Counted from the stretch's first letter, positions 6,597 through 64,000 are shown. The stretch is DNA of 64,000 nt from a virus (IMGVR_UViG_3300032116_000002), one strand, 5' to 3'. Translations and numbers: made by a program. The notes: generated by a model from the letters alone, not told the origin.

Positions 6597-6666
6597 ATAA
6601 ATACAGTTGTAGATGCCGAATTCGGGTCTACAACTATGTCATTCGCTTATTATAAGGAGACTAAAC
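6597..6666 (+). promoter_or_regulatory. hsp20 leader: TAAATA late-type motif, bulged-G hairpin, SD-overlapping motif
   Basis: ATAAATAC; GTAGAT-G-CC-GAATTC-GG-GTCTAC hairpin; GCTTATTATAAGGAGA; parallels dnaK leader. Confidence 0.6.
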
Positions 6667-7110
6667 ATGACTAATCAAATATCTATTCGTACCTTGGATA
6701 TTCCAAGTATTCACAGATTTGGAATCGGATTCGATTCTATGCTTTATGATCTAGCCCGTCTAGCATCAGCAAATGCTTCAAACTATCCCCCATACAATTT
6801 AGTTAAAACCGATGAAAATAGTTTTGCTATTGAATTGGCTGTTGCTGGATTTAAAGAAGGGGAAATTGATGTATCAGTAGAAAAAAATGTATTGACCATT
6901 AAAGGTTCTAAGAAAGACAGTATACCTGATAACTTTGAGTATCTACATAGAGGTATCAGTCAACGTAATTTTGAACGTACTTTCCCACTAGCAGAGCATA
7001 TTGAAGTTACGGGTGCTTTGGTTCGTGACGGTATGTTAATCATTGATTTGTTCCGTTTGGTTCCCGAATCAGACAAGCCCAAATCTATTGCTATTTCATA
7101 CCTTAAGTAA
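6667..7110 (+). CDS. small heat shock protein Hsp20 (IbpA-like)
   Basis: YPPYNL, IELAVAGF, YLHRGISQRNFERTF, DGML alpha-crystallin motifs; start moved to ATG 6667 after AAGGAG. Confidence 0.95.
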   Translation: MTNQISIRTLDIPSIHRFGIGFDSMLYDLARLASANASNYPPYNLVKTDENSFAIELAVAGFKEGEIDVSVEKNVLTIKGSKKDSIPDNFEYLHRGISQRNFERTFPLAEHIEVTGALVRDGMLIIDLFRLVPESDKPKSIAISYLK

Positions 7111-51264: not shown

Positions 51265-51983
51265 TAAAGCCTAGTCTTCCGGATGATAGAGATCATATTT
51301 ACGTACCTATTGGTGGAACTATTCCTGATAGGTTTACTATTAAAAATTTTGATAGTCCCGTAGACAACCAATGGGAACTAGGTAGTTGTAGTGCAAATGC
51401 TTTAGTCAATGCATATGAAAATCTAGTTAATCAATTACATCCAACTAAAGCCGAAGAGTTAAGTAGGCTTTTTGTTTATTACAATACAAGGGCACTTCAC
51501 GAAAATGTTACGGTTGACAGTGGTGCCTATCTTAGAGATACAGTCAAAGCTGTTGAATCATACGGCATATGTACAGAAGATTATTGGCCATACACTCCTT
51601 ATAGGTTTGATCAAAAGCCAAGCACGACTGCATATAATGATGCTAGACAAAGAAAACTGAAAAATTATAAAAGAGTATCAACTGTTGATTCTGTTATAGA
51701 TGCATTGGCTCATAAAAAACCTGTAGTATTTGGTACAACAATATACGGTGATTTTTTAAATCTTAATAGTTATAGTTCAACACTTGTAGAACCTACAACT
51801 AATGACATTAGTTTAGGTGGTCACGCTATGTGTTTTGTAGCATATGATAAACCTAATAAATTATTTAAAGCTAAAAATAGTTTTGGAAAACGATGGGGAG
51901 ATGAGGGATATTGTTATATACCTTTTGACTATATAACAAACTACGGATATGATATGTGGGTGTTTGACTTAGATATGATGTAG
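51249..51983 (+). CDS. papain-like (C1A) cysteine protease, reached only by -1 frameshift or indel
   Basis: Open frame with QWELGSCSANA (Gln/Cys), GGHAM (His), KNSFG (Asn); no ATG/GTG/TTG before 51705. Confidence 0.8.
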   Translation, partial: KKKFIVKPSLPDDRDHIYVPIGGTIPDRFTIKNFDSPVDNQWELGSCSANALVNAYENLVNQLHPTKAEELSRLFVYYNTRALHENVTVDSGAYLRDTVKAVESYGICTEDYWPYTPYRFDQKPSTTAYNDARQRKLKNYKRVSTVDSVIDALAHKKPVVFGTTIYGDFLNLNSYSSTLVEPTTNDISLGGHAMCFVAYDKPNKLFKAKNSFGKRWGDEGYCYIPFDYITNYGYDMWVFDLDMM

Positions 51984-51984
51984 T

Positions 51985-52061
51985 TGGTCGGAGTACGAGG
52001 ATTCGAACCTCGGACCCCCTGCTCCCAAAGCAGGTGCACTACCAGGCTGTGCTATACTCCG
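51985..52061 (-). tRNA. tRNA-Pro(UGG)
   Basis: Cloverleaf, CCA encoded. Confidence 0.95.
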
Positions 52062-52065
52062 AAAC

Positions 52066-52139
52066 TGGTTGCGGGACCCGGAATCGAACCAGGAACTGGA
52101 GCTTATGAGACTCCCGAGATGCCGTTTCTCTATCCCGCG
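52066..52139 (-). tRNA. tRNA-Met(CAU), initiator-like
   Basis: C1:A72 mismatch and A11:U24, but lacks the three G-C anticodon-stem pairs. Confidence 0.85.
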
Positions 52140-52146
52140 TCTGTTA

Positions 52147-52419
52147 TTAACCTGTTCTATGAATGATGTGAAAACCAAACTGAGTTTGCACAGGCTCACT
52201 TACTTGTCCTATTTCTAATGCGTAAGTAGCATCTTCAAAGGGCTTAACCATTTGACCTTTACCAAACAAACCTAAATCACCACCATTCTGTCCACTAGGA
52301 CATCTTGAAACTTGTTTTGCCATAGTTGCGAAATCAGCAGCTTGGCTTAGTAGTTGACTCTTTATCATGTTTGCTTGTTCTAAATTTTCTACTAAAATAT
52401 GACTTGCACGAACTTGCAT
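52147..52419 (-). CDS. ppiC: parvulin peptidyl-prolyl isomerase
   Basis: ASHILV, SRCPSGQNGGDLG, GQMVKPFE, TQFGFHII. Confidence 0.95.
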   Translation of the reverse strand: MQVRASHILVENLEQANMIKSQLLSQAADFATMAKQVSRCPSGQNGGDLGLFGKGQMVKPFEDATYALEIGQVSEPVQTQFGFHIIHRTG

Positions 52420-52439
52420 AATTTATCCTTGTATGTTAG

Positions 52440-52638
52440 TGTAAGGCTACTCGCTCCCACAAGCCCCTTACTGAGTTGTTGCCCTGTCCACTACATTTCT
52501 CTTTTGGTAAGGTGTAGTTCCAACCTACGACTTTTCTGGCACCCATGTAAGCGGGTTCTGAGGCAGATCGTATGCGCCCTGGCTTTCTGGTTTGCCAACC
52601 ACCCCCATTTCATAACGCAGATGGGACTACGGGATACT
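52440..52638 (-). ncRNA. structured ncRNA A (about 200 nt)
   Basis: GC-rich, no credible ORF, multiple hairpins; 17-nt identity with RNA B. Confidence 0.7.
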
Positions 52639-52716
52639 TGGAGCAACGGGTGAGATTCGAACTCACGGCTTTAGGGTTTTGCAGACCCTTGCATTGGGCC
52701 TCTCTGCCACCGTTGC
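52639..52716 (-). tRNA. tRNA-Cys(GCA)
   Basis: Cloverleaf, CCA encoded. Confidence 0.93.
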
Positions 52717-52717
52717 A

Positions 52718-52912
52718 TTATTTCAATAGTTCAATCAACCTTTGCTTTGATTCTTCTGTCAAGAATAATTCACACTTTACCTGATCGTGTGGGAACTTTG
52801 CAACGTCCCAATGTGTATAGATTCTTAACACTTGAAAATTACTTGGGGTATCACAATTCTGTAACTCTGCATATGTTTTAAATCCATCATTCTCATTCAA
52901 CAAAATTTTCAT
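52718..52912 (-). CDS. hypothetical protein
   Basis: ATG 52912 after AAGGA. Confidence 0.6.
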   Translation of the reverse strand: MKILLNENDGFKTYAELQNCDTPSNFQVLRIYTHWDVAKFPHDQVKCELFLTEESKQRLIELLK

Positions 52913-52930
52913 TGTAATATCCTTATTGTT

Positions 52931-53004
52931 TGGCGTCCCGGCAGGGATTTGAACCCCGACCAACGGTTTTGGAGACCGGTATGCTGCCGTTACACTACCG
53001 AGAC
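52931..53004 (-). tRNA. tRNA-Trp(CCA)
   Basis: Cloverleaf, CCA end. Confidence 0.92.
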
Positions 53005-53012
53005 ATTATACT

Positions 53013-53216
53013 TTACTTGTACTTACTAAGATACTCTTTTGGGTTTATTAAACCCTGTTCGATTTCATTTAATGCAGTTACTACAGGTTTATCTTTGGTG
53101 ACTATTTTAGGGGCATGTCCTGAACGTAATTCACGCACCCTAGCACTAGCGATTAAAACTAAATCATATAAGCCACCTGCTTTTTTTGCTGCTACTTCTG
53201 ATGTTCTACCTTTCAT
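53013..53216 (-). CDS. rpoZ: RNA polymerase omega subunit
   Basis: YDLVLIASARVREL..GHAPKI..DKPVVTALNEI. Confidence 0.85.
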   Translation of the reverse strand: MKGRTSEVAAKKAGGLYDLVLIASARVRELRSGHAPKIVTKDKPVVTALNEIEQGLINPKEYLSKYK

Positions 53217-53235
53217 ATTACTTCCTTATGATGTT

Positions 53236-53310
53236 TGGTAGGGGATAACGGGGTCGAACCATTGACCTTCGCCTTGTAAGGGCGCTGCTCTACCACTGAG
53301 CTAATCCCCT
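53236..53310 (-). tRNA. tRNA-Val(UAC)
   Basis: Cloverleaf. Confidence 0.93.
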
Positions 53311-53375
53311 AGTATTTTTTATTAGGTACGAAATTCTCTATCGGTTGATAGATATTTAAGTGAAGTGATTAAAAA

Positions 53376-53558
53376 TTAATCTGAGACTTTTTCAATTCTT
53401 ACGGACAAATCTTCTTGGGTCAAGAATTTGCTTGGTAGAGTATTGTTATCTCTTTCAGCAATGATTCCGTCAGTGACAGACTTAGGATTATATCTTTCCT
53501 GACCTGTTAAGTCCATAGACTTGTAAAAAATTTCGTTAATGTAGACATTGATTTTCAT
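53376..53558 (-). CDS. hypothetical protein
   Basis: ATG 53558 after GATAAATA. Confidence 0.55.
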   Translation of the reverse strand: MKINVYINEIFYKSMDLTGQERYNPKSVTDGIIAERDNNTLPSKFLTQEDLSVRIEKVSD

Positions 53559-53585
53559 ATAACTATTTATCACTTTACATTAAAA

Positions 53586-53668
53586 TGGTGCGCATAGAGG
53601 GACTCGAACCCCCACCCGTTGAGACCAGAACCTAAATCTGGCGCGTCTACCAATTTCGCCATATGCGC
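53586..53668 (-). tRNA. tRNA-Leu(UAG)
   Basis: Type II cloverleaf. Confidence 0.94.
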
Positions 53669-53676
53669 ATAATACT

Positions 53677-53760
53677 TGGTGCCCAGAGCCGGACTCGAAC
53701 CGGCACGCCTTGCAGCGAGGGATTTTAAGTCCCTTGTGTCTACCATTTCACCACCTGGGC
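53677..53760 (-). tRNA. tRNA-Leu(UAA)
   Basis: Type II cloverleaf. Confidence 0.94.
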
Positions 53761-53769
53761 ATTCTAACT

Positions 53770-53844
53770 TGGAGCGGGTGACAGGGATCGAACCTGCGAC
53801 GAACAGCTTGGAAGGCTGACACTCTACCACTGAGTTACACCCGC
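53770..53844 (-). tRNA. tRNA-Gly(UCC)
   Basis: Cloverleaf. Confidence 0.95.
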
Positions 53845-53853
53845 ATTACATCT

Positions 53854-53930
53854 TGGTGCCTCCGAAGGGACTCGAACCCCTAACCAACGGATTATGAGTC
53901 CGCTGCTCTGACCGATTGAGCTACAGAGGC
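53854..53930 (-). tRNA. tRNA(CAU), elongator Met or Ile2
   Basis: Cloverleaf; identity not resolvable by eye. Confidence 0.88.
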
Positions 53931-54000
53931 AATTTAATTTGTTTTTAAAGAACGATTTCAATATGTGTATTATACTGCTAAAAACTTTATTTGTCAACAG

Positions 54001-54225
54001 TTAAACAAAATCATCTGACCCAAAATACTCTGCTACTTTTTCTCTTGCTTCTTTTCTATTCAGTGCAGGAATCTTTACTGTAGCAATATTATTTTTTATT
54101 TTGATGTTAAAAGGAACTATACCATTTGGTGTCCAGTTATCTTCAACACGAACCTTAACAGTAAATTCTTTAAGGTTCATTAATCTTTCAATTACTTGTT
54201 GCGTTAAATCTGATGGACTTTGCAT
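54001..54225 (-). CDS. hypothetical protein
   Basis: ATG 54225 just 3' of tRNA-Thr. Confidence 0.6.
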   Translation of the reverse strand: MQSPSDLTQQVIERLMNLKEFTVKVRVEDNWTPNGIVPFNIKIKNNIATVKIPALNRKEAREKVAEYFGSDDFV

Positions 54226-54237
54226 AGTTAAGTTAAA

Positions 54238-54312
54238 TGGTGCTGGCAGTAGGAATCGAACCCACAACCTACTGATTACAAATCAGTTGCTCTACCGTTG
54301 AGCCATGCCAGC
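54238..54312 (-). tRNA. tRNA-Thr(UGU)
   Basis: Cloverleaf. Confidence 0.95.
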
Positions 54313-54322
54313 GTATTCTGTA

Positions 54323-54484
54323 TTACTTAGTCCTACTTGCAATCGCACGTTGAATTTTCATACGATGCTTTGGTCTACATGTTTCAAGCATTTTGGTAAG
54401 TTGTTCTACATTAAGTGGACCTAATTTAGTCTTACCTGTTTTTGTTTTCATTGGATCACGTTTAAAATCTTTTTTTGCACTCAT
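54323..54484 (-). CDS. 53-aa basic protein (not in ORF track)
   Basis: GAGGA RBS; MSAKKDFKRDPMKTK... Confidence 0.6.
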   Translation of the reverse strand: MSAKKDFKRDPMKTKTGKTKLGPLNVEQLTKMLETCRPKHRMKIQRAIASRTK

Positions 54485-54504
54485 ATATCCTCACATAAAA
54501 AACT

Positions 54505-54580
54505 TGGCTCCGGTGGTAGGGCACGATCCTACGACATACGGATTAACAGTCCGCCGTTCTACCAACTGAACTACACCGGA
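54505..54580 (-). tRNA. tRNA-Asn(GUU), non-canonical T-loop
   Basis: Cloverleaf; T-loop AUCGUGC. Confidence 0.88.
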
Positions 54581-54609
54581 ATTGACTCTATTCTAACAGT
54601 TAAAATTCT

Positions 54610-54703
54610 TGGCGAAGAGTATTGGATTCGAACCAATGATCCGGCTTTTGACCAGATGCCTTCTTAGCAGGAAGGTGCCTTCGACCAACTCGGCCAACTC
54701 TCC
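54610..54703 (-). tRNA. tRNA-Ser(GCU)
   Basis: Type II cloverleaf. Confidence 0.93.
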
Positions 54704-54710
54704 TTAAAAC

Positions 54711-54953
54711 TTAATACTTCTCTGTAATCTTTTCTATTCTATCAAAACTTTGTTTCAATGTCAATTCATATCTAACCTGATTAAGGTTAATTGCATAAAT
54801 TATATAGACACCATAAACAAACAATGCACCTAATATAGTCCAGCCAATTTGCTCACTATCAAGTGTTAGTAAAAAAGCAATTAGCAAAGGAGCAACTGTT
54901 GCTAATACAACCATTATTAATGTTCTTTTTAGTGCAATTAATTTTTCATTCAT
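54711..54953 (-). CDS. small membrane protein
   Basis: Two TMs; behind early promoter. Confidence 0.65.
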   Translation of the reverse strand: MNEKLIALKRTLIMVVLATVAPLLIAFLLTLDSEQIGWTILGALFVYGVYIIYAINLNQVRYELTLKQSFDRIEKITEKY

Positions 54954-54964
54954 AACAATTCCTT

Positions 54965-54993
54965 ATTGTATATCAAACAGGATTTATTGTCAA
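54965..54993 (-). promoter_or_regulatory. early promoter
   Basis: TTGACAATAAATC, 17-bp spacer, TACAAT. Confidence 0.8.
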
Positions 54994-55289
54994 CTGTTTT
55001 CTTTGTTGTCATCTTTGTAAAACTTTTCCTGTTTATGTTTCTTTTCTTGCAACGTTTCTTCACCGAAAAACTTTCGAGGATTACCGCACATATAACACTT
55101 TGGATCTCCGCAATTAAAAATCTTTGTTTTGTGGCTACGATGTGGTTGCGTCATAAACGGCATTTTGCTCATAGCAGAACTAAGCTTGTGATATCCATAA
55201 TTCTTAGCTAATTGTAACTGTCTTTTTATCTTTGTTGCTTTTTGATGGAGTCTCTCACTGTGTCTAATTTTATCTGATTCATCTGACAT
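54990..55289 (-). CDS. basic protein with CGDPKCYMCGNPRK motif
   Basis: GGAGG RBS. Confidence 0.7.
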   Translation of the reverse strand: MSDESDKIRHSERLHQKATKIKRQLQLAKNYGYHKLSSAMSKMPFMTQPHRSHKTKIFNCGDPKCYMCGNPRKFFGEETLQEKKHKQEKFYKDDNKENS

Positions 55290-55306
55290 ACACCCTCCTT
55301 AACATT

Positions 55307-55397
55307 TGGCGGAAGCGGACGGAGTCGAACCCTCAAGGGCCTATTAAGCCTCAACTGTTTTCAAGACAGGTACCATCGCCAATTGGTTTGCGCTTCC
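55307..55397 (-). tRNA. tRNA-Ser(UGA), atypical D-arm
   Basis: Type II cloverleaf; overlapped by the HNH ORF. Confidence 0.85.
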
Positions 55398-55836
55398 TTT
55401 TGTTTCTTGATTTATAAGTTGGTAATTGGGAATCACAATTACTACAAACAAATCTTAAATTTTCTATCCTATTATCATTGTTTATGCCGTTTATGTGATC
55501 TAGTATTAATGTCATTGGCTTACCTTGCCACATTGGTTCTATACCACAAATACCACAAACATAATCAATTAATTTTTTTGCTTTTATCCTTGCTTTAACA
55601 CTATGTCTAGAATAACTAGAATTTTCACAAAACACAACATCATCTGGGTATTTTTGATCGTAATGTTCGGGTCTGCCTGTTTTTAATCCTAAGTTCCATG
55701 GTTTAGCACCTTTTTTTCTACCTGCATTTGGTGAATGAAAATGCTTTATTTTGTTAGGATTATTAACACACGACATTTCATGTGCTTTTAGTGAACCTTT
55801 GTTTTTAATTTCTCTTTGACAATATGTGCAATTCAT
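55351..55836 (-). CDS. HNH homing-type endonuclease
   Basis: CGICG..LDHINGINNDNRIENLRFVCSNCD. Confidence 0.88.
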   Translation of the reverse strand: MNCTYCQREIKNKGSLKAHEMSCVNNPNKIKHFHSPNAGRKKGAKPWNLGLKTGRPEHYDQKYPDDVVFCENSSYSRHSVKARIKAKKLIDYVCGICGIEPMWQGKPMTLILDHINGINNDNRIENLRFVCSNCDSQLPTYKSRNKRKRKPIGDGTCLENS

Positions 55837-55894
55837 AATAGTATCCTCTACTATTATTTATGCTTTAACGCAAAAAATCGTCAAATAGCTGCGT

Positions 55895-56134
55895 TTAGCC
55901 ATTCTTCCTTTTTATTATCATTGCTACATATGTTCCTGTAAATGCACCTAATAATGCAGGTATCAACATCAAATTATCGTTAACAAAGCTTATTAGAGCT
56001 ATACTATATATTAACATAACGATTGATGCAAGTGTACTGGCAACCAAAGGCTTATCTTCGGCAATAGCTTTTATATAATAGGTATTCACTATATCGGTAA
56101 AAAATACAGCAAAAAATGTGATGATATATGACAT
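55895..56134 (-). CDS. small membrane protein
   Basis: Three TMs. Confidence 0.6.
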   Translation of the reverse strand: MSYIITFFAVFFTDIVNTYYIKAIAEDKPLVASTLASIVMLIYSIALISFVNDNLMLIPALLGAFTGTYVAMIIKRKNG

Positions 56135-56138
56135 TGGG

Positions 56139-56210
56139 TTAGTCCTGCAGGAATCGAACCTGCATCATTGCAATCGGAATGCAGTATCTTATCCATTAGA
56201 CGAAGGACTA
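56139..56210 (-). tRNA. tRNA-Arg(CCG)
   Basis: Cloverleaf; 3' end ACCCA, so CCA not encoded in register. Confidence 0.88.
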
Positions 56211-56214
56211 AAAT

Positions 56215-56288
56215 TGGAGCGGGTAGCGAGAATCGAACTCGCAAATAATCCTTGGCAAGGATTCAGGTTACCTTTACATCATACCCGC
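56215..56288 (-). tRNA. tRNA-Gly(GCC)
   Basis: Cloverleaf. Confidence 0.92.
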
Positions 56289-56296
56289 TTGAAACC

Positions 56297-58207
56297 TTAA
56301 TTAGTTTCTTTTACTTCTGCGTCTACTACATTAGGATCACCTTCTGCTTTTTGTGCGTTTGGATCACCTTCTGGCATTTCTTTATTGCGCTTTTCTGCTT
56401 CATATGTAATAGTTTTGCGATATAGTTCACCGAGTTCTTCAGTGGCTTTGTCCATATCTTCTTTACTATCACCTTTAGCAACTTCTTTGTATTTACTAAT
56501 ACTATCAAGCATTGAAGTTTTTTCTTCTTCAGGAATATAGCCTTCAAGATTTTCAATTTGCTTTTCAAGCATACCAATTTGATTATCCAAACTGTTACGT
56601 GCTTGTACAAGTTCTACAACCTTTTTATCTTCCTCAGCATTTAACTCAGCGTCTTTGACCATTTGTTCAATTTCTTGTTCAGATAATCCAGAACTTGCTT
56701 TGATAGTAATTTGCTTTTCTTTGTTAGTTTTCTTGTCAAGAGCCTTAACTGATAGTATACCATTTGCGTCAATGTCAAATGTTACTTCAATCTGTGGCAT
56801 GCCTCTTGGTGCAGGATCAATGCCCTCTAGTGTAAACTCACCTAGTCCTTTGTTACCTACAACAATTTCACGTTCACCTTGGAAAACTTTAATTGTAACA
56901 GCAGGCTGATTATCGTCTGCTGTACTAAAAGTTTGGCTTGCCTTTGTAGGAATCGTTGTATTCTTTTTGATAAGTTTAGTCATAACACCACCTAGTGTTT
57001 CAATACCTAAACTTAAAGGTGTAACATCCAACAACAGAACATCAGTGCGATCACCACCTAAGACTTGACCTTGAAGTGCAGCACCAACTGCAACTGCTTC
57101 ATCAGGGTTTACATCTTTACGAGGTGCCTTACCAAAAAACTTTTCTACTGCTTCTTGTACTCTTGGCATGCGAGTCATACCACCAACAAGAATCACTTCA
57201 TCAATATCACTGATACTTACACCAGCGTCTTTGATTGCAACTTCACAAGGCTTAATGCTACGTTGAATTAACTCTTCAACCAAACCTTCTAATTTAGCAC
57301 GTGTGATTTTAACGTTAAGATGCTTTGGTCCTGTTGCATCAGCAGTGATATAAGGTAAGCTTACATCAGTCTGTGTTGAACTTGATAGTTCAATCTTAGC
57401 ACGTTCTGCTGCATCTTTAAGTCTTTGTAATGCTAATACATCTTTAGTTAAATCTACACCACTTTCTTTTTTGAACTCATCAACTAGATGATCCATAATT
57501 CTTTGGTCAAAATCTTCACCACCTAAAAATGTATCACCGTTAGTTGATAATACTTCAAATTGTTTTTCACCTTCGACATTAGCAATATCAATAATACTAA
57601 TGTCAAATGTTCCACCACCTAAGTCATAGACAGCAATTTTTCGGTCCTTCTTGTCCTGTTTGTCTACACCGTAAGCTAATGCTGCCGCTGTAGGTTCGTT
57701 AATAATACGCAATACTTCCAGACCCGCAATGCGTCCTGCGTCTTTAGTTGCTTGTCTTTGACTATCATTAAAATATGCTGGAACTGTAATAACAGCCTTT
57801 GTGACTTCTTCACCTAAGAAATCTTCTGCTGTCTTTTTCATTTTACGCAAAACTTCAGCACTGATTTGTGGAGGTGCTAGTTTCTTGTCATTCACTTCTA
57901 CCCAAGCATCACCGTTATCTGCTTCTACAATCTTATATGGCATTAGATCGATATCTTTTTGGACTGCTTGTTCTTTGAATTTGCGCCCAATCAATCTCTT
58001 TGATGCATACACCGTGTTCTTTGGATTAGTAACAGCTTGACGCTTAGCTGGCGCGCCAACAACGATTTCACCGTCCTGCATGTAGGCGATAATGCTTGGG
58101 GTAGTTCTTGCACCCTCGCTGTTCTCTAATACTTTTGGATTTTTGCCATCTATGATAGCAACGCATGAATTGGTAGTACCTAGGTCAATACCTATAATCT
58201 TTGACAT
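56297..58207 (-). CDS. dnaK: Hsp70 chaperone DnaK
   Basis: [31 protein letters not shown]. Confidence 0.98.
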
Positions 58208-58274
58208 GTTATTTCTCCTTTAATAAGCAAGATTACTTCAGTGCCCGATAGGCGCAACTGAGATATGTATTTAT
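58208..58274 (-). promoter_or_regulatory. dnaK leader resembling hsp20 leader
   Basis: ATAAATAC; TCAGT-T-GC-G-CC-TATC-GG-GC-ACTGA hairpin; GCTTATTAAAGGAGA. Confidence 0.6.
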
Positions 58275-58305
58275 ACATTATTTTTACTAAAAATACAAAT
58301 ATATT

Positions 58306-58380
58306 TGGTAGCAGGAGAGGGATTCGAACCCCCGATAGCTTCCGTATGAAGGAAGTGCATTACCTCTTTGCTATCCTGCC
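58306..58380 (-). tRNA. tRNA(CAU), Ile2 or Met
   Basis: Cloverleaf, loop UUCAUAC. Confidence 0.82.
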
Positions 58381-58430
58381 ATATACTTTCGTACATTTAT
58401 TTGTTACAAGTAACAAATATATAACTTTAT

Positions 58431-58628
58431 ATGGAAATAGAATTTATTTCATTATACAAACTCGGAGTAGGATGCATCCTAGTGAGGTATGAAGATATTA
58501 TAACAATGGAGTACACTCCACTAGGATATACTCGTATTGAATTTGGGTACGGCGAACATCTTATTGTTGAAGAAGATATAATTTGTATAATGAAAAAAAT
58601 TCAAGCAGCTAAAACGCTAAGTGAATAA
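58431..58628 (+). CDS. hypothetical protein
   Basis: 65 aa ORF filling a tRNA spacer. Confidence 0.45.
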   Translation: MEIEFISLYKLGVGCILVRYEDIITMEYTPLGYTRIEFGYGEHLIVEEDIICIMKKIQAAKTLSE

Positions 58629-58704
58629 TGGTGCCGCCTGTTGGTTACGCTCCAACCTATCCGGCTCTTCAAACCGGCGCTTTCACTAGATTAGCTTAAG
58701 CGGC
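58629..58704 (-). tRNA. tRNA-Phe(GAA), non-canonical T-loop
   Basis: Stems intact; T-loop AGCGUAA. Confidence 0.82.
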
Positions 58705-58706
58705 AT

Positions 58707-58783
58707 TGGGGTGAAGGACGGGACTCGAACCCGCAACCACTGGATCCACAATCCAGGGCTCTACCAATTGAGCTACCAACACC
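58707..58783 (-). tRNA. tRNA-His(GUG)
   Basis: G-1:C73; two U-U mismatches in acceptor stem. Confidence 0.88.
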
Positions 58784-58788
58784 ATTGA

Positions 58789-58968
58789 TTATGTTGCACG
58801 CCATTCTACACGACCATACTGGTCTATATGTGCAATACTTTGCATACGTTTGACTTCAACATATTCACGTTTCTCAGTAATAATTTCACCACCACGTTGT
58901 ACTAATTCATTTACTTTAATCTTTGCTACAGAATTAATAGGTTCAAATTTTTTAAACTTGATCTCCAT
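58789..58968 (-). CDS. 59-aa hypothetical protein (not in ORF track)
   Basis: GGAGG RBS; MEIKFKKFEP... Confidence 0.6.
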   Translation of the reverse strand: MEIKFKKFEPINSVAKIKVNELVQRGGEIITEKREYVEVKRMQSIAHIDQYGRVEWRAT

Positions 58969-58990
58969 TTTACACCTCCGATTTATAAAT

Positions 58991-59092
58991 ATGTAGTGTA
59001 GCGGTTAATCTAGCACACAAGGATGCCAACGTAAAGAGTTTTCTAGATTTCCTCTATACCTAGTCGAAGGCCAAATTGTCGCTACACTACAT
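58991..59092 (-). ncRNA. 102-nt stem-closed RNA element
   Basis: Perfect 13-bp terminal inverted repeat ATGTAGTGTAGCG/CGCTACACTACAT. Confidence 0.45.
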
Positions 59093-59665
59093 CACAGGTC
59101 CATTACCATTTTTAAAACCAACAGTACCGCCTTCTTCTACAATACGTTTGATAACTTCTTCAAACAATATAGGGCGATAATCTGTTTGTTCTACACAAAC
59201 ACAATGATATCTTGGGTCGATTTTATATTCACCGAAAATTTCTGCTTTAACTCTCTGATAATGCAGATGTCCATGAATATTAGTACCGAACCTTGCGAGA
59301 CTATCTGTATGAATAGGAATATGACTTAATATCATTCCATTCATTACATGATAGCCACGAATATCTCTAAAGTATTCAGTGTATTCTTCTAATCTAAAAA
59401 TGTCGTGGTTACCCTTAATAAGAACCTTATCTCCATTAAGCCTTGCTAGAGTTTTAAGTGCTTTACGATTAATCACAACATCACCGAGATGGTAAACTTT
59501 ATCGTTTGGACGAACGGTTTCGTTCCAACGTTTTACCATTTCTTCATCCATCTCATCTGGGTCATCCCAGGGTCTGAGTTTAGTTCCATCATCACGAAGG
59601 AACTTACAAACGCCAGCATGACCAAAATGCGTATCAGAAACCAAAAAGTTTGCTGGCATAGTCAC
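59087..59665 (-). CDS. calcineurin-like phosphoesterase
   Basis: SDTHFGH, HLGD, GNHD, SHIP, HGHLH. Confidence 0.9.
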   Translation of the reverse strand: MTMPANFLVSDTHFGHAGVCKFLRDDGTKLRPWDDPDEMDEEMVKRWNETVRPNDKVYHLGDVVINRKALKTLARLNGDKVLIKGNHDIFRLEEYTEYFRDIRGYHVMNGMILSHIPIHTDSLARFGTNIHGHLHYQRVKAEIFGEYKIDPRYHCVCVEQTDYRPILFEEVIKRIVEEGGTVGFKNGNGPVM

Positions 59666-59710
59666 TCCTTAAATAAAAAAATTATAACACAAAAACAATT
59701 TACTGTCAAT

Positions 59711-59787
59711 TGGCACCCCAGGAAGGATTCGAACCTCCGACTCCTGCGTTCGTAGCACAGTACTCTAGTCCACTGAGTTACTGGGGC
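59711..59787 (-). tRNA. tRNA-Arg(ACG)
   Basis: Cloverleaf. Confidence 0.94.
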
Positions 59788-59796
59788 ATATATTGA

Positions 59797-59872
59797 TGGT
59801 GGGGGCTATGGGAATCGAACCCATTTAATCTACTATGTCATAGTAGCGACTAGCCATTCATACCTAGCCCCT
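59797..59872 (-). tRNA. atypical tRNA-Val(GAC)-like gene
   Basis: Perfect T-arm and ACCA, anticodon stem intact; D-stem largely unpaired; A1:C72. Confidence 0.55.
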
Positions 59873-59946
59873 CGCCGACCCGGGGTTTCCCTCCTTGCAG
59901 TCGGTGAAGTATTTATTGCCCAACACCATTAAAAATAAATACAAAA

Positions 59947-60648
59947 ATGCATATACATATATTTGGTCACAGCATTTGTGCCAGAGCAGGTTGGAAACAT
60001 GACAAACCCGAACCTGATCTATTTGTTGATAGATTAATTAAAAAATATAATATACCTAAATCAAACTATCACGCTGTTAATCAAGGCAGTGAAGAAAGAA
60101 TATTATATTTTTTAAAAAAAGTTAAAAAGATTGACTTGGCGATAATCTTCCATGGCACTCCGCAACATTTCTTTTGTCCTGCGTGGTCTAGTGATTTTCA
60201 TTTAGTAGACCAAGACAAATATTGGGAAAATGATTACCCCAGAGATTTGTATTACATGCCTGAAATACTAAAAGATAAACCAAAAGAACCTAATCCTGAT
60301 ATAATATTAGATAAGAAAAATTATCAAAAATCATATGAAAATTTTGTAAAACACTTTTATACACCTGAATTAAATCGCAATAGACACTATGGCGCATTAA
60401 TTCAAATTGATCAATATTTAAATCACAAAAAAATACATGCAATTCATTGTGTACTAAAAAACACATTACCAACTTGGTTCGAGTTTAGTAATGGTATAGT
60501 AGACAATGAACTTGCAGAGTTGCAAAAACAAAACAGTAAGTTCTATACCGGACCTCAAAACAGCGGCAATTTAATCAGTGAAGAAGGTAATATCTACATT
60601 GCTAACAAACTTACTGATTACATAGAACAATTAACTGGCTGGGGATGA
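59947..60648 (+). CDS. hypothetical protein (SGNH-like fold possible)
   Basis: IFGHSIC start, QGSEERI, N..SEEGN end. Confidence 0.65.
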   Translation: MHIHIFGHSICARAGWKHDKPEPDLFVDRLIKKYNIPKSNYHAVNQGSEERILYFLKKVKKIDLAIIFHGTPQHFFCPAWSSDFHLVDQDKYWENDYPRDLYYMPEILKDKPKEPNPDIILDKKNYQKSYENFVKHFYTPELNRNRHYGALIQIDQYLNHKKIHAIHCVLKNTLPTWFEFSNGIVDNELAELQKQNSKFYTGPQNSGNLISEEGNIYIANKLTDYIEQLTGWG

Positions 60649-60711
60649 TGGACTCGAACCACCGAATGTCGGAATCAAAATCCGATGCCTTACCAACTTG
60701 GCGAATCCCCA
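60636..60711 (-). tRNA. tRNA-Gln(UUG)
   Basis: Cloverleaf. Confidence 0.94.
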
Positions 60712-60712
60712 A

Positions 60713-60862
60713 TTAACTTGGTATTACTTTTGGTATATACGGTACATTTCTAGGACCATGTCTTTGCTCAAATAACATACGTGCTTCCTGTAAATCTTTA
60801 GCATAGACACGATCTTTAATATCACCTTGCGGTGTTCTTACTGTAGTTTCATACATTGGCAT
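60713..60862 (-). CDS. 49-aa hypothetical protein (not in ORF track)
   Basis: AAGGAG RBS; MPMYETTVRTPQG... Confidence 0.65.
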   Translation of the reverse strand: MPMYETTVRTPQGDIKDRVYAKDLQEARMLFEQRHGPRNVPYIPKVIPS

Positions 60863-60880
60863 AACAAACTCCTTAGAGGT

Positions 60881-60908
60881 AAGAAAAGGTAGCTAAGCTA
60901 CCCTTTTC
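60881..60908 (-). terminator. intrinsic terminator 3' of pqqA
   Basis: GGTAGC-TTA-GCTACC followed by TTTTCTT. Confidence 0.8.
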
Positions 60909-60932
60909 ATTATGTTGATTGAAAATCACTGA

Positions 60933-61004
60933 TTAGCGATTTGCAATGTACATAGTGATTTCAAAACCAAAACGCATATCAGTTGCACTAGGTGTTGTCC
61001 ACAT
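60933..61004 (-). CDS. pqqA: PQQ cofactor precursor peptide PqqA (23 aa, not in ORF track)
   Basis: MWTTPSATDMRFGFEITMYIANR with E-x3-Y core; AAAGGAG RBS. Confidence 0.93.
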   Translation of the reverse strand: MWTTPSATDMRFGFEITMYIANR

Positions 61005-61024
61005 GTTACTCTCCTTTGAATTTA

Positions 61025-61083
61025 AAATACATGTACTGCACATGTATTTAAGAGATTGTACAACACAAAAATGGTACTGTCTA
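61025..61083 (-). promoter_or_regulatory. pqqA promoter and 5' hairpin
   Basis: TAGACA (61083-78), 17-bp spacer, TACAAT (61060-55); AAATACATGT/ACATGTATTT 10-bp hairpin. Confidence 0.7.
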
Positions 61084-61125
61084 TACGCATAGTATTGAAC
61101 GATAGCTAGTGAAAATCATTAAACT

Positions 61126-61217
61126 TACCATATAGAAACACATTCCTGGATTGTCGTAAAACCCTCCATAGCCCCGAGCGCCATTATTTTTATATTCGAA
61201 TGTGTTTTTATATGGTA
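61126..61217 (-). repeat. 20-bp inverted repeat overlapping tRNA-Lys 3' end
   Basis: TACCATATAGAAACACATTC / GAATGTGTTTTTATATGGTA, one mismatch. Confidence 0.7.
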
Positions 61218-61288
61218 GGGGCACAGAGATTCGAACTCTGGACACACGGATTAAAAGTCCGCTGCTCTACCTACTGAGCTATACCCCC
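61213..61288 (-). tRNA. tRNA-Lys(UUU)
   Basis: Cloverleaf. Confidence 0.95.
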
Positions 61289-61315
61289 ATCATCTTTCGA
61301 GGTTTGTCGCTTTCC

Positions 61316-61483
61316 TTATTCATCTTTATCACCTTTATTTCTCATGCTTCTTGTTTTAGCACTTCTTTCTGAGGATTTGACTGCCTCACGAATGAAATGT
61401 CTTTCACGTTCCTTATTAAAACTAAGGATCGCAATAGCCTTTTCTGCTTTCTTTATTTTTACTGCCTTTGGATCGTAACCCAT
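61316..61483 (-). CDS. 55-aa basic protein (not in ORF track)
   Basis: AGGAG RBS; MGYDPKAVKIKK... Confidence 0.6.
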   Translation of the reverse strand: MGYDPKAVKIKKAEKAIAILSFNKERERHFIREAVKSSERSAKTRSMRNKGDKDE

Positions 61484-61583
61484 ATTAATCTCCTATTTAA
61501 AATTTCTATCAATTAATGCTAACAACCAAATAACTCCGATAATAACTGCCATTGCCCCATTGTAGTTCTCCTTATAGTTATAT

Positions 61584-61667
61584 TGGTGGGGTGTACTGGG
61601 ATCGAACCAGTCATGTCAAAGACGGCGGATTTACAGTCCACTGCATCACCATTGATGCTTCCACCCC
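61584..61667 (-). tRNA. tRNA-Tyr(GUA)
   Basis: Type II cloverleaf. Confidence 0.92.
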
Positions 61668-61668
61668 A

Positions 61669-61875
61669 TTTAATGCTCTGACAGACCTCGGAGGTAATTA
61701 TACCGCATCAAGCACCGAGTAGTCTCAGTACCATCACACACGGCCTCCACCCTCTCCACGACAGGTCCCGTTCTCGCATTGCCAGCGCACTTTCGGTTTA
61801 AAGTGTACCACCCGTAGTTGTCATACTACTTCTCATCGTGCGGGTCACACTATCTGCTGACTAAGCAGAACGTTC
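61669..61875 (-). ncRNA. structured ncRNA C (about 205 nt) filling the tRNA-Asp/tRNA-Tyr spacer
   Basis: GC-rich, at least 5 hairpins; shares a two-hairpin module with RNAs A and B. Confidence 0.65.
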
Positions 61876-61952
61876 TGGCGACACCAAGGGGGTTCGAACC
61901 CCTGACCTCCGCCGTGACAGGGCGGCATTCTAACCAGCTGAACTATGGTGCC
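61876..61952 (-). tRNA. tRNA-Asp(GUC)
   Basis: Cloverleaf. Confidence 0.95.
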
Positions 61953-62103
61953 ATTGTTCTACACTCTGCTACTAACTTACTTTTTACAATTGTTAATCTT
62001 TTATTCCAAACATACTCTGCATCTCTACATTCTTTTTCTGTGGCATACTTTGAGTATTGGGTATAGTTGTCAGGAAACTGTAACCAAAATACTAAAATCC
62101 AAG

Positions 62104-62568
62104 TCATCTCACACCCAAATAATGTTTGTTTACATAGCTTTGTATTGCTTGATGACTTACATTACTGATATGCACGCCTGGAGCAACATTACGCCTACCT
62201 GAACTATCAAAGTAATTTCTTGTTTCTATACCATAGACACCATAGTTAACCTGTGCTGTATGATATGCACCAATTGTAACAATAGAGTAGGGCTTATGTT
62301 TTACGTTTTTTAAAACATGTTTAATGCTTTCTGCACCCTTACTATACCCATATAACTGATACTGTTTATTATTTCTATTAATAAACTTTACTGCTAAATG
62401 TGCTTGATTCCAACTATATGTCATTGCACATGCATTCTGCTTTTTTGCATATTGATTAAAGGCACGACTATCAAATAAATCATTGATACCTTTGAAACCA
62501 ATAACGAACTTGTCACAGGCAAAACTGTTCTGTGTTACAAGTAATAAAATAAAAAATAATGTTCTCAT
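62104..62568 (-). CDS. exported small alpha/beta-hydrolase-like protein
   Basis: Signal peptide; GYSKG nucleophile-elbow motif. Confidence 0.65.
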   Translation of the reverse strand: MRTLFFILLLVTQNSFACDKFVIGFKGINDLFDSRAFNQYAKKQNACAMTYSWNQAHLAVKFINRNNKQYQLYGYSKGAESIKHVLKNVKHKPYSIVTIGAYHTAQVNYGVYGIETRNYFDSSGRRNVAPGVHISNVSHQAIQSYVNKHYLGVR

Positions 62569-62584
62569 ATTAGTTTTGTAGCCT

Positions 62585-63118
62585 ATACTATATGCCTAAC
62601 TCAACAGCTTTACACGTGTTTACTGTTTATTGTTTCGGTTACATAACGCCTGCGCCAGCCTCTGTGCTTACAGGCTACAAAATTAATATGCTTAGGCCAC
62701 GCTTTTCCACGGTCGCCCCCAAGCTGGAGTTGTTGCCCTGTCCGAACACTAAAGGACCTTTGCCGCGTAGTGTCCACGCTGCTATGTTGTCTGAAACACC
62801 GGAGACACCACATCGAAATGCAGAGTCTATGTTTCGCTAAAGGTGCCATAGCCACCTGGACTTTATCGTATTACCAAACGCTACTTTCAGGAAAGTAGTA
62901 ACCGGAATCTTGCTTCTTTGATTCGGCGAGCTGTCCTACTTCAAGCAGGCTCACACTGGTCGCCCTGAGGTGAAGCACCTCAGTTACTCTAGATTAATAT
63001 TAATGCTAACAAGGACAGGCCTATTACATGATACCGAAGGCATTACTGTATCAAACCCTTGCTAAACTCTTTTCAGAGACAGAACGCACATTTTCTGTTT
63101 TGTTTTTAATCTTCATTT
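62585..63118 (-). ncRNA. large structured ncRNA B (about 540 nt), GOLLD/ROOL-class candidate
   Basis: Own early promoter; nested long-range helices and many hairpins; no credible long ORF. Confidence 0.72.
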
Positions 63119-63124
63119 GCCGCT

Positions 63125-63153
63125 AGTATAACAGCAAATCGATTTATTGTCAA
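63125..63153 (-). promoter_or_regulatory. early promoter driving ncRNA B
   Basis: TTGACAATAAATC, 17-bp spacer, TATACT. Confidence 0.85.
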
Positions 63154-63157
63154 ACTT

Positions 63158-63234
63158 TGGTGCCTGCTCTTGGAATCGAACCAAGCACCCCCGCGTTATC
63201 AACACGGTGCTCTAACCGAATGAGCTAAGCAGGC
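63158..63234 (-). tRNA. tRNA-Ile(GAU)
   Basis: Cloverleaf. Confidence 0.95.
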
Positions 63235-63238
63235 AAAC

Positions 63239-63314
63239 TGGCACACCCAACCGGATTCGAACCGGTGTATTCACCGTGAAAGGGTGATGTCCTAGGCCTC
63301 TAGACGATGGGTGC
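63239..63314 (-). tRNA. tRNA-Glu(UUC)
   Basis: Cloverleaf. Confidence 0.95.
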
Positions 63315-63386
63315 GTAAAACTGTTAAAGAACTAAAAATAATTCAGACATTTTATCTCGTTTTGGATTTAATGTCAAGTTGTTGTT

Positions 63387-63462
63387 TGGTGGAGGTGACA
63401 GGGATCGAACCTGCGACCTACGGCTTGCAAAGCCGCCGCTCTCCCAACTGAGCTACACCCCC
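63387..63462 (-). tRNA. tRNA-Ala(UGC)
   Basis: Cloverleaf, G3:U70. Confidence 0.95.
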
Positions 63463-63472
63463 AAATTAAATC

Positions 63473-63549
63473 TGGCCTGACCAGAGGGATTCGAACCCCC
63501 GACTTACTGCTTAGAAGGCAGTTACTCTATCCAACTGAGTTATGGTCAG
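63473..63549 (-). tRNA. tRNA-Arg(UCU)
   Basis: Cloverleaf. Confidence 0.95.
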
Positions 63550-63583
63550 AAAGTAATGATTGTACTATAACTGCGATTATTTG

Positions 63584-64000
63584 TCAAGCCTGAAGAATTG
63601 TATATTTGTCAATTTTCATTTTATCAATTTGTTCCAATATTTTTGTTGCTAAAATTGCATTAGTTTCAGCGGTTAAGTGTATTGGACTTACTCCCCAACG
63701 GTGTCGAGGATCCATATAAACAAATTGATCGTCAAGTTCTACTACTGGTAAATCGCTTCCATGCTTTCTTTTAAAATGCTGAACCATAACATCTAACCAA
63801 CGTAATACATAAGGTCCATTTTTAGGATCATTCATGAATCTGTAGTTGTGATAGAATGGTATGTTTTCTTTTAGATTTATTGTGTACGGAACAATTTTTT
63901 GCTTGCTAATGTAACACTTTGATGCTAGTTTTGTTTTGACTAAAATAATTCTGTCCTGAAACAGTTGTTTCATCTGTACAGCAAAATCAACTAACAACTC
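63584..64000 (-). CDS. hypothetical protein (5'-truncated by window)
   Basis: Open frame to window edge; HRWGVSPIHL. Confidence 0.55.
   Translation of the reverse strand, partial: ELLVDFAVQMKQLFQDRIILVKTKLASKCYISKQKIVPYTINLKENIPFYHNYRFMNDPKNGPYVLRWLDVMVQHFKRKHGSDLPVVELDDQFVYMDPRHRWGVSPIHLTAETNAILATKILEQIDKMKIDKYTILQA

Follow-up and report, generated by a model that had tools for sequence, protein, structure and literature searches.

Structured RNAs within a viral tRNA array

We analysed a stretch of 64,000 nt (in the following called the window) from the minus strand of the 117.8-kb virus record IMGVR_UViG_3300032116_000002 in IMG/VR, which is estimated to be 33% complete. The window contains a minus-strand array of 24 tRNA genes, identified by ARAGORN between 51985 and 63549, to which Rfam added four weaker tRNA matches, including a tRNA-Tyr at 61587-61667. 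Each of 14 freshwater or lake DNA runs contains 87% or more of the words sampled from 53201-63200. Three structured RNAs lie within this array and are here called RNA A, RNA B and RNA C (Table 1). An earlier annotation of the same DNA, in the following called the sequence-only reading, had described them as a single family of phage RNAs that share a module of two hairpins and might bind tRNAs. All sequences quoted there are present on the minus strand, on which all features lie unless stated otherwise. RNA A and RNA B are indeed paralogues within one RNA family, for which there is no Rfam model; RNA C belongs to another.

Table 1 Features of the tRNA array and of RNAs A, B and C, in window coordinates. 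R1 and R2 are covariance models described in the text.
Feature	Position	Strand	Remarks
RNA A, A-type member	52440-52638	-	R1 188.5 bits; structure counted on alignment A2
RNA A: PKa	52631-52634 (UCCC) with 52455-52458 (terminal-loop GGGA)	-	both sides change together
RNA A: PKb	52627-52630 (5' strand) with 52617-52620 (H1 loop)	-	double changes at 4/4 pairs
RNA A: H1	52621-52625 with 52604-52608	-	CCCAU/AUGGG
RNA A: helix X	52601-52603 with 52589-52591	-	GGU/ACC; nearly invariant in A-type
RNA A: pseudoknot Y	52594-52597 (loop UGGC) with 52580-52583 (GCCA)	-	97.5% paired; double changes at 4/4 pairs
RNA A: H2	52576-52579 with 52561-52564	-	A2 helix count
RNA A: PKc	52568-52572 (H2 loop) with 52526-52530	-	94% paired; double changes at 5/6 pairs
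RNA A: H3	52553-52556 with 52541-52544	-	A2 helix count
RNA A: H4	52513-52517 with 52491-52495	-	double changes at 5/5 pairs
RNA A: 17-mer mini hairpin	52473-52489	-	A-U, G-C, G.A, G.A, loop CAAC; exact match; tallies of 163 members
RNA A: H5 outer stem	52466-52471 with 52441-52446	-	98% paired; internal loop GG/UAG
RNA A: H5 inner stem	52459-52463 with 52450-52454	-	89% paired; loop GGGA
RNA B core, B-type member	62686-62910	-	R1 30.4 bits; B-type counted on 30 sequences
RNA B: PKa	62904-62907 with 62705-62708	-	
RNA B: H1	62892-62898 with 62881-62887	-	CUACUUU/AAAGUAG, 7 bp, CCUG loop
RNA B: X	62878-62880 with 62867-62869	-	CGU/ACG
RNA B: Y	62874-62876 with 62857-62859	-	
RNA B: H2	62853-62856 with 62842-62845	-	
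RNA B: PKc	62847-62852 with 62781-62786	-	
RNA B: H3	62830-62835 with 62793-62798	-	
RNA B: H4	62768-62774 with 62745-62751	-	
RNA B: 17-mer	62727-62743	-	
RNA B: H5	62690-62724	-	
RNA B: 5' leader	62911-63117	-	conserved only in near relatives (L095, L158, L152, L109)
Promoter-like site for RNA B	63125-63153	-	candidate; TTGACA, 17-nt spacer, TATACT, extended -10 TG; 11/12 consensus matches
RNA C, second-family member	61668-61875	-	R2 231.8 bits; fills tRNA-Asp/tRNA-Tyr spacer
RNA C: C1	61864-61868 with 61854-61858	-	
RNA C: C2	61846-61850 with 61838-61842	-	
RNA C: C3	61825-61829 with 61814-61818	-	
RNA C: PKb	61807-61810 with 61794-61797	-	
RNA C: H1	61800-61805 with 61788-61793	-	CACUUU/AAAGUG
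RNA C: X	61785-61787 with 61775-61777	-	CGC/GCG
RNA C: C4	61764-61768 with 61683-61687	-	
RNA C: C5	61751-61754 with 61691-61694	-	
RNA C: C6	61740-61744 with 61702-61706	-	
tRNA-Cys	52639-52716	-	CCA end one base before RNA A
tRNA-Tyr (GUA)	61585-61667	-	long variable arm, encoded CCA; Rfam tRNA model 35.2 bits; uncalled by ARAGORN
Weak tRNA-like match	58632-58704	-	43.2 bits; uncalled by ARAGORN
Weak tRNA-like match, long arm	55310-55397	-	31.9 bits; tRNA-Sec model 44.6 bits; uncalled by ARAGORN
Weak tRNA-like match	59800-59872	-	29.7 bits; uncalled by ARAGORN
Hsp70/DnaK gene, full-length	56297-58207	-	inside tRNA array; E = 7e-256
Parvulin-type peptidyl-prolyl isomerase gene	52147-52419	-	inside tRNA array
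HNH endonuclease gene	55351-55836	-	inside tRNA array
190-aa open reading frame	59087-59665	-	weak calcineurin-like phosphoesterase/metallophosphoesterase match below Pfam cut-off; also L006:3755-4324

RNA A and RNA B represent a family spread among uncultivated phages

As the sequence-only reading had stated, RNA A and RNA B have the 17-mer GGACAGGGCAACAACUC in common; in the window, it occurs exactly at 52473-52489 and 62727-62743 only. No third site with up to three mismatches was found in the window, where 0.09 would be expected by chance, and the complement of the 17-mer is absent from it. The exact 17-mer is present in 25 IMG/VR contigs, and a degenerate version of it, among the matches listed, in more than 120 viral contigs, which are uncultivated and mostly of freshwater origin. 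Scans of viral, genome and metagenome collections yielded 202 17-mer sites, 89 of them with the downstream motif of the family, and at least 163 distinct members were counted. Matches in bacterial and archaeal genomes were rejected: none of the 58 had the downstream motif, their flanks were unrelated and mostly coding-looking, and their number agrees with a rough estimate of ~70 chance matches for a collection of that size. These genomic matches gave no lead to a prophage or a host.

Two forms of the family were distinguished by eye and by alignment. The A-type often lies directly 3' of a tRNA, with 56 of 113 members abutting the tRNA 3' end (130-175 nt before the 17-mer), and members of the B-type are often preceded by a promoter-like sequence of their own. 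In 159 of 165 distinct A/B members, a tRNA on the same strand lies at a distance of at most 3 kb. A covariance model built from A-type sequences only (R1) matched RNA A over its full length with 188.5 bits and RNA B over the full model length with 30.4 bits (E = 3.5e-7). Judged by model and alignment, RNA A and RNA B are homologous.

The different types also occur near each other. In three loci (L204, L216 and L224), RNAs of the A, B and C types are found 0.3-2 kb apart on the same strand. Loci fetched with C-type strings contain A-type (86-165 bits) and B-type (28-34 bits) RNAs nearby, and some loci fetched through the 17-mer contain a C-type RNA. A complete phage genome of 364 kb contains a single A and a single B at a distance of 120 kb and lacks C; A, B and C are all present on one fragment, and two further fragments have C only. 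From this distribution, A and B look like a constant pair of paralogues and C like a frequent companion. A-type and B-type RNAs lie 0.5-6 kb apart on the same strand in L204, L216, L224, L228, L241, L244, L098, L022 and L012, and locus L264 possesses two A-type copies separated by 380 nt.

Covariation supports a fold with several pseudoknots

The structure of the A-type was derived by hand and counted on a MAFFT alignment of 20 sequences (A2). It comprises 11 helices, and the fold has seven hairpins and four pseudoknots. In this alignment 90.1% of the cells pair, compared to 36-48% if the partners are slid by one to three columns, double changes occur at 37 of 52 pairs, and all five measures lie above those of all 500 shuffles. 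The two strands of pseudoknot PKa vary across lineages as UCCC/GGGA, CCUC/GAGG, CCCC/GGGG, CCU/AGG and UUCCU/AGGAA, and pseudoknot Y takes the forms UGAC/GUCA, UGCC/GGCA and UAGC/GCUA in relatives. The distant strand of PKc lies ~40 nt downstream of the H2 loop.

For the B-type, an independent derivation on 30 sequences resulted in the same helices in the same order, with 87.6% of the cells paired versus 35-44% in the controls and many double changes in each of H1, PKc, H3 and H5. PKb is degenerate in most B-type members, in which H1 has a tetraloop, and H3 varies greatly in length. In the loop of X, pairing with a downstream CC is confined to GG, and the UGG is absent from some members, such as L147 and L152. 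The GAAA of RNA B, previously assigned to the end of a loop, belongs to the 7-bp stem of H1, which is closed by the loop CCUG. RNA B had also been given an extent of 62585-63118, of which the core in Table 1 is conserved and the remainder consists of a lineage-specific leader and tail; according to a comparison of upstream regions, other B-type lineages begin at the UUCC of PKa.

When 66 distinct sequences of the family were aligned to the model, 91% of the cells paired versus 30-46% in the controls, a figure that leans toward the structure because this alignment was fitted to it. Minimum free energy folding of single sequences was uninformative (z-scores of 0.49 for A, -1.54 for C and -2.29 for B), as expected for pseudoknotted RNAs. 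Taken over all alignments, the proposed A/B fold is well supported. The suggestion of selection on structure stands for both RNA families, with strong covariation and register-shifted controls that are far lower. An ACCA tail or an H/ACA-like ACA box following H5 was considered as a further conserved element and rejected, as it occurs only in a subset of the members.

The 17-mer forms a nearly invariant mini hairpin

Within the 17-mer, a mini hairpin of 12 nt with purine-purine pairs is preceded by GGAC and followed by C. It is located between H4 and H5, is nearly invariant (A-U, G-C, R.R, G.N, loop YAAC) and lies beside a conserved internal loop of H5, GG/GU(A/G)G. The mini hairpin and H5 with this internal loop are present both in A (52441-52489) and in B (62690-62743). 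Among 163 members, positions 5:16 are A-U in 154 cases, G-C in eight and A.C in one, positions 6:15 are G-C without exception, positions 7:14 are G.A (102), A.G (57), U-A (3) or A.A (1), positions 8:13 are G.A, G-C, G-U or G.G, and positions 9-12 read (C/U)AAC; because the search pattern fixed GGAC, G6, G8, AAC, C15 and C17, only its N positions are informative in these tallies.

RNA C belongs to a second family

RNA C begins with the base following tRNA-Asp and ends a few bases or less before tRNA-Tyr, the 5' end of which would set the 3' end of RNA C. Two strings from this RNA were found in 15 and 10 IMG/VR contigs, respectively, and 19 distinct homologues could be aligned well, supporting nine helices. 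In these 19 sequences, 94.8% of the cells are paired versus 34-48% in the controls. Double changes occur in C1-C6 and in H1, next to long invariant stretches that include the whole X hairpin, whose loop is identical in 19 of 19 sequences.

The covariance model of the C-type (R2) has no match in A or B, and R1 has no match on RNA C at E<=10; RNA C possesses a conserved core of its own. The string GGAGAGGG in RNA C, which had been put forward as the counterpart of the 17-mer, is not one: the A/B model misses C and the C model misses A and B. By these comparisons, the family of RNA C is separate from the A/B family and equally well supported. Both families, for which covariation was found among homologues from phage contigs, are widespread. 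The invariant GGGUGGUA of the C-type (61751-61810 and 61691-61700) could also pair with UACC(U/G)CC, in competition with C5, the helix backed by covariation, and C-type RNAs may have an alternative fold via this element.

The two-hairpin module

The first hairpin of the proposed module is present in A, B and C, as are the 3-bp stems of the second (GGU/ACC, CGU/ACG and CGC/GCG), the UGGYAA loops and the A(G/U)AA tails, in the same order in all three RNAs. A descriptor of the second hairpin has three occurrences in 128 kb (both strands), all of them in A, B and C, and Markov simulations gave a mean of 0.18, with 0 of 300 reaching three; this significance is overstated and indicative only, because the descriptor was derived from the same data. 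A module model from 23 B-type 5' modules (R3) pointed to the right place with weak scores, both in A (4.7 bits, E = 0.085 within RNA A alone) and in C (2.1 bits, E = 0.36 within RNA C alone), and at the scale of the window, with filters off, it found neither A nor C. RNA C follows the order of B, with a strand that pairs with the H1 loop, H1, a 3-bp hairpin with UGGCAAU and AGAA. A module common to B and C is plausible, although R3 does not demonstrate it for C.

It had further been proposed that the two short loops resemble T-loop motifs gripping the tRNA elbow. In the A-type, the loops of the module are not free T-loops, because both are paired in covarying Watson-Crick pseudoknots, PKb and Y, and the pairing of loop positions 1-4 in Y argues against an interdigitated double T-loop there. 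For B or C, a T-loop lies beyond the reach of sequence alone because it is a three-dimensional motif. Binding of tRNA by these RNAs is not supported.

Transcription and coding potential

Contigs of four metatranscriptome runs were placed on 51900-63600. An exact contig of 153 nt covers 52470-52622 in RNA A; in RNA B, a contig of 220 nt with one mismatch covers 62757-62972 and another one 62830-63015, so that RNA contigs bridge position 62910, the 5' edge of the B core. A contig joint skipping 62793-62835 matches relatives with a shorter H3. In run X20, the depth was 177 at 52531 and 280-570 across the B core, compared to 0-1 over the open reading frame (ORF) stretches 55028-56200, 60111-60501 and 62066-62456. 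Since the depth is high on A and B and close to zero on the ORFs, this result points to abundant RNA, not contaminating DNA. Depth in the bin of RNA C may come from tRNA-Asp.

In addition to the promoter-like site upstream of RNA B, a string near GTGTGTTTCAATATGG is conserved just before B-type RNAs (L143, L022, L106, L098 and L144) and just before C-type RNAs (L206, L207 and L213). It is probably a phage-specific promoter. No terminator for RNA B was found on the minus strand. Located in tRNA arrays, the RNAs are probably made together with the tRNAs. No reading frame stays open in every member, the minimum of the 'longest open stretch' being 27-45 of ~67 codons, and the lengths of family members differ by non-multiples of three; by these measures, RNAs A, B and C are non-coding.

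Neighbouring genes

Several protein-coding genes are interspersed in the array (Table 1). The gene for the peptidyl-prolyl isomerase starts ~20 nt past RNA A, both in the window and in locus L006. The 190-aa ORF is the commonest protein neighbour of these RNAs (24 loci), and from its weak domain match its product might be an RNA-end-healing enzyme. An RNase H-like ORF lies near the RNAs in 11 loci. Elsewhere in the window, a ROSE_3 RNA thermometer was matched at 6607-6672 on the plus strand with 53.7 bits (gathering score 43), which is unexpected in a phage that also encodes its own DnaK.

Comparison with known RNAs

Searching A, B and C against Rfam 15 gave no match at the gathering thresholds, at E<=5 over the array, or at E<=10 when stretches of ~200 nt were searched with lax filters, and this includes the models of RNase P, T-box, GOLLD and ROOL as well as those of HDV-like (hepatitis delta virus), hammerhead, twister, hatchet and pistol ribozymes. 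With blastn, A, B and C had no match in 50,697 GenBank phage records. In the searchable literature, the 17-mer string was found, in its DNA form, only in two unrelated papers on human KIF4A. Fremin et al. 2023 mined IMG/VR, the same contig collection, by covariation and reported thousands of unnamed candidates, some of them beside tRNAs (PMC10690425); the main text of that study contains nothing like the A/B and C families. The two families are apparently undescribed, as far as the main text of this nearest catalogue (PMC10690425) allows comparison.

In biological terms, RNAs A, B and C come closest to GOLLD, ROOL and the T4 species 1 and 2 RNAs, without kinship to any of them in sequence or structure. 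GOLLD and ROOL are RNAs of phages and prophages, often near tRNA islands, with several pseudoknots, abundant transcripts and unknown function; they have no known protein partner and form homo-oligomeric RNA-only cages (PMC12286853). The RNAs described here are alike in phage origin, tRNA-island setting and pseudoknots, but have ~200 nt instead of roughly 580 and 800 nt, their helices and conserved motifs differ, and the GOLLD and ROOL models do not match even at E<=10. The T4 species 1 and 2 RNAs (rnaC and rnaD) lie directly 3' of tRNA-Arg in a tRNA cluster (GenBank T4 annotation) and are likewise small stable RNAs without known function, presumably released by tRNA processing. With 119 and 139 nt they are shorter, and R1 and R2 run against the T4 region with filters off had no match to rnaC or rnaD, the best hit (E = 0.28) lying elsewhere in the locus.

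Short UGGNA-like loops and the linkage to tRNAs also recall RNAs that bind tRNA via T-loops, namely the RNase P S-domain, stem I of the T-box and the L1 stalk. The A-type loops instead form the Watson-Crick pseudoknots described above. A relationship to RNase P was considered from a likeness of A and B to CR-I/CR-V seen by eye and rejected: besides the missing Rfam match, the AAAGUCC involved is not conserved in the B-type, and ACCC...GGGU is part of a local covarying hairpin, H3, in the A-type. A T-box leader was rejected as well, with no Rfam match and neither a downstream aminoacyl-tRNA synthetase gene nor a terminator.

Possible functions of the RNAs

On balance, RNA A and RNA B are likely paralogues of an undescribed family of ~200-nt phage non-coding RNAs and RNA C a member of a second one, and all of them may be stable RNAs that act in trans. 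An A/B RNA forms a compact knot, in which PKa joins the 5' end to the loop of the 3'-terminal hairpin and PKb, X/Y and H2/PKc tie hairpin loops to distant strands. Judging from their anatomy and from the processing of tRNA operons, the RNAs would be excised from tRNA polycistrons by those host enzymes that process the tRNAs on either side, with RNase P acting on the downstream tRNA and 3' trimming of the upstream tRNA releasing A and C; alternatively, they may start from their own promoter, as proposed here for B. They would then accumulate as stable species and could act as RNA-only or RNA-protein particles, like GOLLD, ROOL and T4 species 1 and 2, conceivably with the mini hairpin and the internal loop as the working surface. 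They are probably not classical cis-regulators.

Several points weigh against this interpretation. Metatranscriptome contigs do not reveal the ends, the strand or the real abundance of an RNA and may include DNA, and among those placed, no contig from an RNA library lies on RNA C. Most of the 30 bits that R1 assigns to RNA B come from the 17-mer and H5, and for this reason the structure of the B-type was derived independently. In many A-type members, PKa takes up all four bases of the tetraloop; since such pairing is sterically awkward in one molecule, it may be intermolecular. The ORF at 62104-62568 begins 118 nt after B, so that B could, strictly speaking, still serve as its leader. Among the neighbouring genes of the loci, there was no consistent RNA-binding partner protein.

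The position of the RNAs directly behind tRNAs could also mean that they are self-cleaving ribozymes, the knotted core cutting its own 5' edge and freeing the 3' end of the upstream tRNA. Small HDV-like ribozymes beside phage tRNAs are thought to free tRNA 3' ends, RNA C, like half of the A-type, begins 1-5 nt past a tRNA CCA, and ribozymes typically combine multiple nested pseudoknots with a core that hardly varies. We consider self-cleavage improbable, as the B-type RNAs are preceded by promoters of their own, often without an upstream tRNA, RNA contigs cross the 5' edge of the B core, no Rfam ribozyme model matches and tRNA 3' ends are already trimmed by host enzymes. The embedding in long polycistrons rich in stable hairpins could instead suggest cis elements of the tRNA operon, with no free-standing RNA, whose two hairpins act on RNA polymerase or processing nucleases, carrying transcription through the array or setting cleavage sites. 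HK022 put RNAs act on the transcribing RNA polymerase, in each RNA the two hairpins of the module are located close to the 5' end and separated by 0-2 nt, and a strong promoter-like site precedes B where a stretch of the array begins. However, a 200-nt fold with four covarying pseudoknots and a 5'-3' closure far exceeds the needs of such signals, RNA A is situated at the far end of the array, A and B lie 120 kb apart in the complete genome, and RNA-library depth is much higher on B than on the downstream ORF, which makes this explanation very improbable in our view.

Two further possibilities concern what the loops contact. UGGN loops or T-loop-like turns might grip the elbow or the 3' NCCA end of tRNAs, which would then be chaperoned, stored or decoyed, or tRNA-cleaving defence nucleases distracted. 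The tight association with tRNA arrays, the complementarity of UGGY to the tRNA 3' RCCA and the invariance of the X loop in the C-type would fit such a role, and RNA C contains GGGUGGUAC, which we take to be identical to part of the T-box core. Against this, the UGGC of the A-type pairs internally with GCCA, and this Y pairing is not constrained by tRNA because it covaries to sequences other than CCA; the H1 loop is likewise occupied by PKb, the UGG is missing from some B-type members, and neither T-box nor RNase P models match. We therefore rate tRNA binding as doubtful at best. If PKa were instead intermolecular, it could join subunits head to tail into rings or cages. PKa covaries, covariation is blind to intra- versus intermolecular pairing, the 4-nt loop partner of many A-type members is hard to pair fully within the molecule, and ROOL and GOLLD near tRNA islands assemble into such cages (PMC12286853). 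ROOL and GOLLD are, however, 3-4 times as large as the RNAs described here, some members have larger loops with which PKa can form intramolecularly, and the PKa strand of B is internal in this genome, behind a leader of 200 nt. Self-assembly of this kind appears quite improbable.

Few large structured RNAs combine several covarying pseudoknots with a nearly invariant core, and those found in the past were ribozymes, riboswitches or RNA machines. Here, two families of ~200 nt with a close link to tRNA arrays were found in considerably more than 100 contigs of uncultivated phages, and both are absent from Rfam and from the cultured phages in GenBank. It is rather unlikely that the A/B and C families represent new catalytic or self-assembling RNA classes of giant freshwater phages; if they do, the G.A mini hairpin and the internal loop would be an active site working on tRNA or another RNA, or PKa would chain copies into an RNA-only particle. 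Together with GOLLD, ROOL and T4 species 1 and 2, the two families speak for phage tRNA islands as a reservoir of functional RNAs, and they make the role of tRNA-island RNAs more tractable because a size of ~200 nt suits probing, cleavage assays and cryo-electron microscopy.

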